Source: a virus
Lineage: Duplodnaviria > Heunggongvirae > Uroviricota > Caudoviricetes
Virus record (IMG/VR): IMGVR_UViG_2522572021_000009
DNA length: 47,236 nucleotides
Strand: one strand, 5' to 3'
Shown here one piece after another: positions 15,001 through 18,000 of the stretch. Within the stretch, counting starts at the first letter, position 1; each line of letters begins with the position of its first letter. The position numbers were made by a program.

Positions 15001-18000
15001 ACGGATAAGACGACGGGGAACGGCCAGCTCCCTGGCAACTGAAGAGGCCGTTTTCGCAATAATGGCCCCCGCCACTCGGTTCAGTGTCGTGGCAGAGGCC
15101 CGGGGAACGGCACGGCGATCAATTGCATCCAGATTTTTCATGGCCTGCGCCAGACCTTTTATTGCCATACTCATTCCTGTTCGACAAAAATCCGGGGTTT
15201 ACCGTTGTACGTGTCATAACGGGTCACCGTCAGTGTGCGCCCCGCAAACACAACAACATCATGACGGGCCGGACGGTACCGGGCTGAAAACACCACCAGT
15301 GACAACTGGCTGCCCGAAAGCGCCCCCATCTCCGCGGACTCTTCCTCCGGCATCACGTCGTACACGACGCCGTTAATCTCCGCCTGTTTGCCCATCACCC
15401 GAACGGTCGCCACGTCCATCCGGCAACACATTCGCGTAAACAGATCAGACATTGATTTTTACCGCCACAGTGGCGCTGTTTGCAGGGGCATTTTCCCAGG
15501 CTACCCCCGCTGCCACCGCACCGTCTGCAGCCAGCTGCACAACCCCGTCCTTCAGATAAACCACCGCGCCGGACTGAATGTCGTCAGCAGACTGTTTGGG
15601 CAGCAGGAACACGCCTTCGGCAAAACCGTCACCGGCCTCACCGGCAGGAATATCGGTAATGGCCACGGCCACCATACTGCCGACCACCACCGCAGCACCG
15701 CTCAGGATGGTCTGATCTCCGGCATTCACCAGTTCAATGGTGGTACCGTCCTGTACAAAATTTTTCGCCATAATGCTGTTTCTCCGGACAGCCCCTGTGG
15801 GGCTGTTTTTCAGGCATAAAAAAAGCCCTTTCGGGCAGTGATTGTGATAACGCGGTTATCAGGCCACCGACGAACGCACCAGCCCGCGCCAGTCAAGTGG
15901 TGCCACTCCGGCATCAATACGGATTTTTGTGGCAATGCCGTCAGTGGTGAAACCTTCCTGCTGATCAATGTATGGCGTGTCCACACCATCCAGCCAGGCC
16001 ACTTCAATGGTGTCAGTGCCCTGTGCCGCCGCCAGATACCAGGTTTTCGGGTCTGCCGCATCAAGACGCGCTTCTGCAATCACCTCAGCAAAGTTCTGGA
16101 TAGGGTTAATGACACCGGCGTTTGCATCCGCCCCTTTCACACTGGCCGATTTGATGGTCTGGTTCGCCACCGTCTCCAGTGCCACCGGTACCAGCATAAA
16201 GGCCGGACGGATATTCAGGGCACGATCGCCTTCTTTCTGCAGGCGCATCATCTGACGGGCCGCATCCAGTCCGGAAACGGAGATCCCCCCGGTGGCAATA
16301 TTTTTGTGATCGGCATGGAACAGCGCCTTACCGTCGGACAGTTTCGGGTTATCCGTCAGCACCTTGTAGACCAGGTCACCAATCGTTGCCTTCGCCGCAC
16401 GCCCCATCTTCATCGGCACGTCCACCAGCATATTCAGATCATCATTGATAATGGCCTGGCGGGTGATGGAGAAAATCTCCCCGTAAGTGGCCAGTGCAAT
16501 GGTCTCCTTGCGATCTGAGGTGGTGATGTATTTATACTCCGCCCCCTCACGAACCTGGCGCAGAGAACCAAAACCCCCATCCCCACGCGATACGCTGTTT
16601 TGAAGTCTGACAGGCGTCCCTTACGGGTCCACTTCTGGAAGGTTTCTTCTGATTCCTCCCAGCCCTGGATCAGCCCCTTGTTCGACACATCCAGCAGAAT
16701 ATTGCCAAAATCAGAGGTGCTGTGCGTCAGCGCCAGCCCGACCATCTGCATGGGGTTATAACTGGCCACCCCAATACCGCGCTCCGTCAGTGACATGCGA
16801 GCCCATTCACGCAGGGTCATCCCGTTATAGGCGTTATCCTTCTCGACATTTTCAAATCCGGCACGGGCCAGCATCGCCTGGCGGATCCCGTCCCCCACAA
16901 AATTGCCGTTTCCGGCATAAATATGGGCCGGTGTATTTTTGTTGGTCGGCGAGGACTCCTTGCCCATTTCATTCAGCAGTCGTTCACGGGCCATTTCCAG
17001 CGAACAGTCAGGATCAGCCACGCACTGTGCCTGAAGCGTCTGATAGCGACCACCGAACATGGCAAACAGATCGTTAATGCCTGACATGCGGGCTTTCTGT
17101 TCTGCCATAACGCGGGCGCGAATGGTCGCCTCATCAGACACTGCCGGTACCGGTGATGGTTCTGTTACCGCCGGTGCAGGGATTGTCACTGTGGTATCAC
17201 GCGGGGCACTGTTGCGTGGCGGAGTAATCATGTTTCGGATGGATTCCGGCATCTTTTTAAATTCCTCTGTACGTTTTGACTGAATACATGCCATTGCCTC
17301 AACAGCGGGTGTCACCTGGTCAGCAAATCCGTGTGCCAGACATTCGGCACCGGACATCCAGGTTTCATCCGCCAGCATGGCGGCAATTTCATCGGTGGTT
17401 TTTCCGGTTTTCTGCGCATAGGCTGGCAACAGTACCGATTCGACTTTATCCAGCAAATCGGCATAACTGCGCATATCCTCAGCATCCCCGCCACTGAATC
17501 CCCATGGCTTATGGATCATCATGAAGGCATTTTCCGGCATAATGACCGTATCACCGGCCATCGCAATCACAGATGCCATCGAGGCGGCAACGCCATCCAC
17601 ATACACGGTAATGGTCGCCCCCTGATTTTTCAGGGCATTAAAAATGGCGATGCCTTCAAAGACATCGCCACCCGGTGAATTGATATGGAGATTAATGTGG
17701 GTGATATCACCCAGGGCATTCATATCGCTGACAAACTGCTTCGCGGTAACTCCCCAGAAACCAATCTCGTCATAAATATAAATATCTGCCTCACCCTGAC
17801 TACCCGCCAGCATCCTGAACCAGGATTTATTCTTCATGCTGGCTGTCGGTGGCCTGCTGACGCTGTTGTTCAGTTCCGGCACTGTTGCCTCCTTTGTCGT
17901 TGACGGGGTCAGTATCAAAGACCAGCCCCAGTCTGCTGTTTTCATCAATTTCAGCCTTGCGGCGACGTTTGACCTCATCCGGATTGCGCCCACCAGCACG

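Follow-up and report, generated by a model that had tools for sequence, protein, structure and literature searches.

Does the change of reading frame within the head genes of this prophage reflect a capsid gene that has died in a living element, or an error of the assembly in which it was found? The DNA analysed here (47 236 nucleotides in all, referred to below as the window) corresponds to positions 1981735–2028970 of NZ_CP006027.1, the chromosome of E. coli O145:H28 RM13514, to which the 2301-nt region of the gene is 100% identical. It represents a lambdoid prophage adjoining rspB, listed in the genome paper as Prophage 09 (1,982,031–2,027,763), carrying nleC (PMC3893438, Table S2). RefSeq describes 15859–17837 of the window as a 'ClpP-like prohead protease/major capsid protein fusion protein', a pseudogene that is 'frameshifted'. 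Since the gene family is named and common, and the frameshift is already annotated in RefSeq, the finding is ordinary under every explanation discussed below. The frame change is, in our judgement, probably a single-base consensus error introduced into a long repeat that was closed with early long reads, and not a feature of the living prophage.

A one-base lesion in a protease–capsid fusion gene

The gene, its domains, the marks of the frame change and the neighbouring genes are as follows.

17827–19329, minus strand: portal protein gene, immediately upstream of the fusion gene
15859–17837, minus strand: ClpP-like prohead protease/scaffold/major capsid protein fusion gene, frameshifted in the assembly (ECRM13514_RS34810, a pseudogene in RefSeq)
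17310–17789, minus strand: Clp protease domain, residues 17–176 (Pfam PF00574, E=2.4e-36; NF045542, 223 bits)
15871–16745, minus strand: capsid domain Phage_capsid_4, residues 365–656 of the intact protein (Pfam PF25209, E=8.6e-56)
16621–16623, minus strand: stop just 5′ of the downstream (−1) frame
16574–16578, minus strand: G5 run (C5 on the plus strand), made by the loss of one C, as base-by-base allele comparison shows
16434–16436, minus strand: premature stop that closes the upstream frame once 421 native and 46 out-of-frame residues have been read
15445–15771, minus strand: phage cement/decoration protein gene (PF09956), immediately downstream of the fusion gene

ORF listing and three-frame translation show that the upstream frame, which starts at 17837 as in RefSeq, encodes the ClpP-type protease, the linker that follows it and the first part of the capsid domain. 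Past ...DFKTAYRVGMG it runs into 46 Arg/Pro-rich residues that are out of frame (...YRVGMG followed by VLVLCARFVRGRSINTSPPQIARRPLHWPLTGRFSPSPARPLSMMI and the stop). The −1 frame is open from 16620 and holds the other 239 capsid residues, down to 15859, its first start codon being an ATG at 16431; both frames are open across 16437–16620. The original prediction had the upstream ORF ending at 16434 and the −1 frame opening at 16620 without a start codon, and all of these coordinates hold, on the minus strand.

The position of the lesion follows from a base-by-base comparison at the G5 site with O157:H7 PV15-279, O103:H2 12009 and Prophage 15 of RM13514. Over 2301 bases, the window and the intact allele show a single one-base difference: GATGGGCGGTTTTGG in the intact alleles is GATGGGGGTTTTGG in the window, that is, GGGCGG as against GGGGG, so that the lesion lies between window positions 16576 and 16575, within the G5 run. 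The stretch with A4, G4, G5 and T4 runs in which the switch of frame had been sought is indeed present, and the proposed alignment to the capsid genes of related prophages narrows the switch to the G5 run within it. When one C is put back, the gene encodes a protein of 659 aa, close to the 660 or so that had been anticipated, which is 100% identical to WP_001365078.1, an intact homologue found in O157:H7 PV15-279, O103:H2 12009 and many phages and prophages. The G5 homopolymer thus results from the disappearance of a C by which a G run is otherwise interrupted, and is not a strict miscall of homopolymer length.

Assignment to the fusion family is based on NCBIfam and Pfam; a literature search on the ClpP/capsid fusion family found nothing directly useful. 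In a profile search with the identical intact protein, the repaired product scored 1003.2 bits against NCBIfam NF045540 (scaf_prot_MCP1), for which the cutoff is 475. An N-terminal ClpP-type head maturation protease domain and the context of a head module, both features of this family, are found in the window gene. The third, a capsid domain in the same polypeptide, is lacking as deposited, PF25209 being split at codon 421–422, and appears once the one C is restored. The early recognition of a ClpP-like protease–scaffold–capsid fusion was therefore correct, given the NF045540 score, CLP_protease at residues 17–176 and Phage_capsid_4 at 365–656. The frameshift, at codon 421–422, falls ~56 residues into the capsid domain.

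Two overlapping open frames in a phage structural gene may also hint at a programmed −1 ribosomal frameshift on the G-rich stretch, by which a truncated protease–scaffold product and the full-length capsid fusion would be made in a set ratio. The downstream frame is indeed −1 with respect to the upstream one, the G GGG context would allow P-site slippage, and phage structural genes use such frameshifts, as does the tail assembly chaperone in the same window.

12994–12988, minus strand: slippery heptamer GGGAAAG of the tail assembly chaperone G/GT, the real programmed frameshift of the window

At the capsid site, however, the zero-frame codons are GTG GGG ATG GGG GTT TTG, which contain no heptamer of the form X XXY YYZ, and the site lies 56 residues inside the capsid fold, where truncation would leave a structurally senseless product. 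The two-frame layout is not conserved either: the Prophage 15 copy, the O157 and O103 genes and the phage homologues have a single ORF, and 525 of the 526 records considered in the next section are without the deletion allele. With no slippery heptamer and no conservation of the arrangement, programmed frameshifting is effectively excluded.

Rarity of the deletion allele

Among the complete-genome records that hold the site (526 records from 524 genomes, 741 places), a 71-mer with the deletion was exact in one, namely RM13514 itself; in the other 525, the extra base is present or the sequence differs at the 71-mer. All 12 of the 12 closely related phage records (97.4–99.8% identical) matched all 2301 query bases and were one base longer (2302), so that none has a net one-base loss; the match to VT1-Sakai is in two pieces around IS629.

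Assemblies frequently show the fusion gene as frameshifted, and the single-base indel responsible varies from case to case. 2013C-3264 and SCPM-O-B-9504, taken as candidates for the same lesion, were rejected, the gene being frameshifted elsewhere, by a G6 to G5 change at position 1812 of the 2302-base intact allele. In the Logan assembly SRR12217147 the gene is broken by yet another change, a T inserted near CDS position 1400. A 190-aa downstream fragment is on record for RM13514/RM12581 and for SRR12217147, the other matches being contig-end truncations.

These counts bear on the possibility that Prophage 09 of the 2010 outbreak clone has suffered a real one-base deletion, truncating the capsid fusion after residue 421. 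The product would consist of the protease, the scaffold and 56 residues of the capsid domain followed by 46 junk residues, and Prophage 09 would make no heads of its own. We regard this as unlikely. The allele is unique among the 526 records, and the truncated product, of 467 aa from the RefSeq start or 482 aa from the Logan start, has no exact match in 153 billion gene calls, an absence that speaks weakly against a real allele in circulation, since the reads of the clone may lie outside that collection. On the other hand, RefSeq calls the gene a frameshifted pseudogene, and nleC and gpJ of the same prophage are likewise flagged as frameshifted in both the RM13514 and the RM12581 assemblies. 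That the prophages of enterohaemorrhagic E. coli do carry real inactivating mutations also counts against an artefact.

The repeat shared with Prophage 15

The fusion gene lies within a long repeat.

13845–22663, unstranded: 8.8-kb repeat (tail, head, portal and terminase genes) common to Prophage 15 of the same chromosome

Prophage 15 of RM13514 (ssrA–ypjA), located with the help of Table S2 of PMC3893438, contains a second copy of the fusion gene, which is intact; the gene is absent from Prophages 02, 04, 05, 07, 08, 11, 12 and 13. Window positions 13845–22663 differ from Prophage 15 by four single-base indels and no substitutions, and are otherwise identical. One of these indels is the capsid site (16576), and the remaining three, at 20719, 21307 and 21442 (−C, +T and −C), are all in the terminase gene of Prophage 15. 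In the complete genome of O103:H2 12009 the three terminase sites are as in the window and position 16576 is as in Prophage 15; a 201-mer over the terminase indels at 21307 and 21442 is exact, among 531 records, only in the RM13514 and RM12581 assemblies.

Other repeat pairs of RM13514 can be set beside this one. Prophages 07 and 05 have in common a 9.4-kb block that is free of substitutions and has two single-base gaps, while Prophages 11 and 04 have blocks of 4.2 kb and 7.3 kb with one gap each; many phage genes in the prophage repeats of this strain are flagged 'frameshifted'. Real bacterial mutations are mostly substitutions, as can be estimated from bacterial mutation spectra, yet the repeats differ by indels alone. 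We infer from about eight indels and no substitution in roughly 30 kb of repeat that a technical, indel-prone consensus process was at work. A real deletion is difficult to reconcile with this pattern, which real mutation would very rarely yield.

The existence of an identical intact copy elsewhere in the genome may nevertheless be turned in favour of a real deletion, as it would relax selection on the Prophage 09 copy; the Prophage 15 gene could then supply the protein in trans. Carried further, this would mean that all the single-base indels are real and that Prophages 09 and 15 are reciprocally defective in their shared 8.8-kb head module, which we consider improbable. In that case Prophage 09 would have lost its capsid gene but kept an intact terminase, with the converse true of Prophage 15, and either prophage would form particles only with the product of the other, the two making up a complementation pair. 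Such pairs have been suggested to exist within the 'defective prophage pool' of enterohaemorrhagic E. coli.

Two assemblies of one outbreak clone

The assembly of RM12581, an isolate from lettuce that belongs to the same 2010 outbreak and is reported to have no SNPs relative to RM13514 in non-repeat regions (PMC4032123), bears directly on the choice between a consensus error and a real deletion. Only three differences separate the two assemblies in the 47-kb window as a whole, all of them in head genes. At 16576, on the minus strand, RM12581 reads GGCGG, RM13514 GGGGG and other genomes GGGCGG. The other two differences are homopolymer contractions in RM12581, GGG to GG at 15268 and CCCCC to CCCC at 18601, which frameshift a Gifsy-2-family gene and the portal gene, respectively, both of them intact everywhere else. 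With GGCGG in one and GGGGG in the other of two isolates without SNPs outside their repeats, at least one of the assemblies must be wrong at the capsid site, and the data of RM12581 contain the C; that the two lack different bases counts against a real deletion. All of this is most simply explained if the correct reading is GGGCGG, RM12581 having shortened the G3 run, much as in its two neighbouring errors, and RM13514 having dropped the C. We infer that the RM13514 reads themselves carry GGGCGG.

It had been suggested at the outset that an independent assembly with a single continuous ORF would speak against a frame change in this gene. RM12581 does not supply one, being frameshifted at the same site by another base, and the continuous ORFs of the Prophage 15 copy and of the 525 other records bear on the matter indirectly.

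That the assemblies of two isolates, RM13514 and RM12581, each lack one base in the same hexamer counts against an artefact, and would favour a real deletion if the assemblies were independent. The same may be said of the three Prophage 15 terminase indels, which RM12581 shares with RM13514: either these are real, or RM12581 was finished on the RM13514 template, which is suggested rather than proven. The chromosome lengths, 5,585,613 and 5,585,611, differ by exactly the two bases seen in the window, and this two-base gap suggests the use of RM13514 as a template. The lysis cassette of Prophage 15 is moreover resolved differently in the two assemblies, with a block of substitutions at the window-equivalent 23439–23874, so that repeat regions in them are unreliable. 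As to a third assembly of Prophage 09, no other complete E. coli genome matches positions 1–25000 of the window at 99% or more.

Origin of the missing base

The way in which the RM13514 genome was finished offers a plausible route to a consensus error. The data comprised 454 Titanium, Illumina HiSeq and PacBio RS C2 reads, and the draft, in 247 contigs, was broken at repeats; the resulting gaps were then closed 'manually in silico', using Geneious and error-corrected PacBio reads of 547–10,796 bp, the polishing described precedes gap closure, and none is described after it (PMC3893438). The 8.8-kb repeat was too long for the 454 and Illumina reads, and an exact repeat of this length is the kind of region likely to have been closed by hand from corrected PacBio reads. 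A consensus obtained in this way loses or gains single bases, and the C of GGGCGG would have been dropped at this step. The living prophage would accordingly have an unremarkable gene for a complete 659-aa fusion of ClpP protease, scaffold and HK97-type capsid protein, belonging to a known family; if the head assembly of HK97 and lambda is a guide, the intact fusion protein would build the prohead and then be cut by its own protease domain.

Several features of the locus are those of an artefact: the variant is private to one assembly, the repeat is longer than short reads and inserts, and its copies differ by single-base indels only. The nature of the lost base is less typical, and may be counted in favour of a real deletion, since it is no ordinary homopolymer miscount: five of the six other indels examined are changes in homopolymer length, whereas the lost C is not. 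Accordingly, the earlier suggestion of a homopolymer sequencing error stands as regards the error, which the evidence favours, and falls as regards a classic homopolymer miscount, the missing C being flanked by G runs. The original prediction contemplated either a dead capsid gene or a sequencing error, and the choice still lies between these two, with the balance of evidence on the side of the error.

The locus itself carries little biological weight, as it belongs to a known and common family and this copy is already flagged as a pseudogene. A real deletion would only leave one of about 20 prophages in this outbreak strain without its own capsid protein, in a genome that has an identical intact copy elsewhere. 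The case rather calls for caution: the 2014 hybrid assembly of RM13514 and that of RM12581 carry private single-base indels in long prophage repeats, and 'pseudogenes' in such regions are therefore no basis for calling prophages defective before the reads have been checked.

Comparison with known systems

The head modules of HK97 and lambda have the same gene order as the window, namely terminase, portal, protease and capsid. In these phages, however, portal, protease (HK97 gp4; lambda C/Nu3, of family S49) and major capsid protein are encoded by separate genes, whereas the window joins the protease, a scaffold-like linker and the capsid domain in one polypeptide, with a protease of the ClpP type and not of the S49 type. 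The underlying logic is nevertheless shared: in HK97 and lambda, a protease enclosed in the prohead cuts away the scaffolding portion. Other prophages of RM13514 have modules of the lambda type, in which the S49 peptidase is encoded separately, alongside a decoration protein and a capsid gene.

The closest known relatives of the window gene are the members of NF045540, examples of which occur in lambdoid prophages of E. coli O157:H7, O103:H2 and O145:H28 and in the phages Stx2_112808, 1720a-02, CP-1639 and VT1-Sakai. Once repaired, the window gene has the same order of domains (Clp protease, linker, Phage_capsid_4) and the same neighbours, a portal gene upstream and a PF09956 cement gene downstream; the deposited copy differs from the members of the family in lacking one C and in being read as two frames. 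Lambda G/GT, which is also present in the window, with its GGGAAAG heptamer, exemplifies a real two-frame phage structural gene, and the frame change of the capsid gene is unlike it in having no slippery heptamer and in not being conserved in relatives. The locus also resembles the indel consensus errors of repeats finished with early long reads or 454. Although a typical error of this sort changes the length of one run, whereas the window has lost a C between two G runs, a private single-base indel in a long repeat, repeat copies that differ by indels only and a sister assembly that disagrees are their common marks, and all three are found in the window.

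Single-base indels in the prophage repeats

The comparison of the two large terminase copies concerned the following gene.

Window 19538-21661, equivalent to 20745-22867 of RM13514 Prophage 15: large terminase gene

Relative to the window copy, the Prophage 15 copy carries three private single-base indels, namely the loss of a C, the gain of a T and the loss of a second C (window-equivalent positions 20719, 21307 and 21442, respectively), and not a single substitution separates the two copies. Among 531 records, a 201-mer spanning the indels at 21307 and 21442 was matched exactly only by RM13514 and by its sister isolate RM12581. 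If these indels were real, the two prophages would carry reciprocal defects, Prophage 09 on the one side and Prophage 15 on the other. Probably, they are instead consensus errors of the same kind as the likely one at the capsid-gene site.

Other repeat pairs of RM13514 present a comparable picture. Prophages 07 and 05 share a substitution-free block of 9.4 kb, while Prophages 11 and 04 share substitution-free blocks of 4.2 kb and 7.3 kb, and one or two single-base gaps are the sole differences within the blocks of both pairs. In the RM13514 annotation, cro is flagged as frameshifted in Prophage 05 and is intact in Prophage 07; likewise, the S49 peptidase gene is flagged as frameshifted in Prophage 04 and is intact in Prophage 11.

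The protease-capsid fusion gene is also frameshifted in other assemblies. In strains 2013C-3264 and SCPM-O-B-9504, a run of six G is shortened to five at position 1812 of the intact 2302-base reference allele, and in the Logan assembly SRR12217147 a T is inserted near position 1400 of the coding sequence. These single-base indels are different ones, and indel calls seem to recur in this G-rich gene.

Comparison of the RM13514 and RM12581 assemblies

Two more homopolymers of the window are shortened in the RM12581 assembly, from GGG to GG at 15268 and from CCCCC to CCCC at 18601; these contractions shift the reading frame of a 93-aa gene of the Gifsy-2 family and of the portal gene. The two chromosomes differ in length by 2 nt, all of which is explained by these contractions. 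The lysozyme and lysis-cassette alleles of Prophage 15 also differ between the two assemblies, by about 30 substitutions arranged as an equal-length block (window-equivalent 23439-23874 and 24844-24902). The prophage repeats of this one outbreak clone were therefore resolved differently, and at least one of the assemblies is chimeric there.

Two other genes of the window are flagged as frameshifted in the annotations of both RM13514 and RM12581.

Window 3831-7306: gpJ (tail tip)
Window 1-992: nleC

The main frame of gpJ is open for 1158 codons, which places its lesion at the extreme 3′ end.

Expected programmed frameshift and putative accessory cassette

Window 12938-13360, minus strand: tail assembly chaperone gene gpG
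Window 12498-12911: gene T
Window 32995-34489, plus strand (opposite), prophage early region: serine/threonine protein kinase and PP2C phosphatase pair

Near the end of gpG and preceding gene T lies the canonical lambda-type slippery heptamer GGGAAAG (12988-12994, minus strand), as expected for the programmed −1 frameshift of G/GT. The kinase and phosphatase genes lie within a low-GC island (about 0.36-0.37, versus about 0.55 in the late genes) and have the look of a 'moron', an accessory cassette gained by acquisition. The pair may be similar to Stk, the kinase of phage 933W that excludes other phages.
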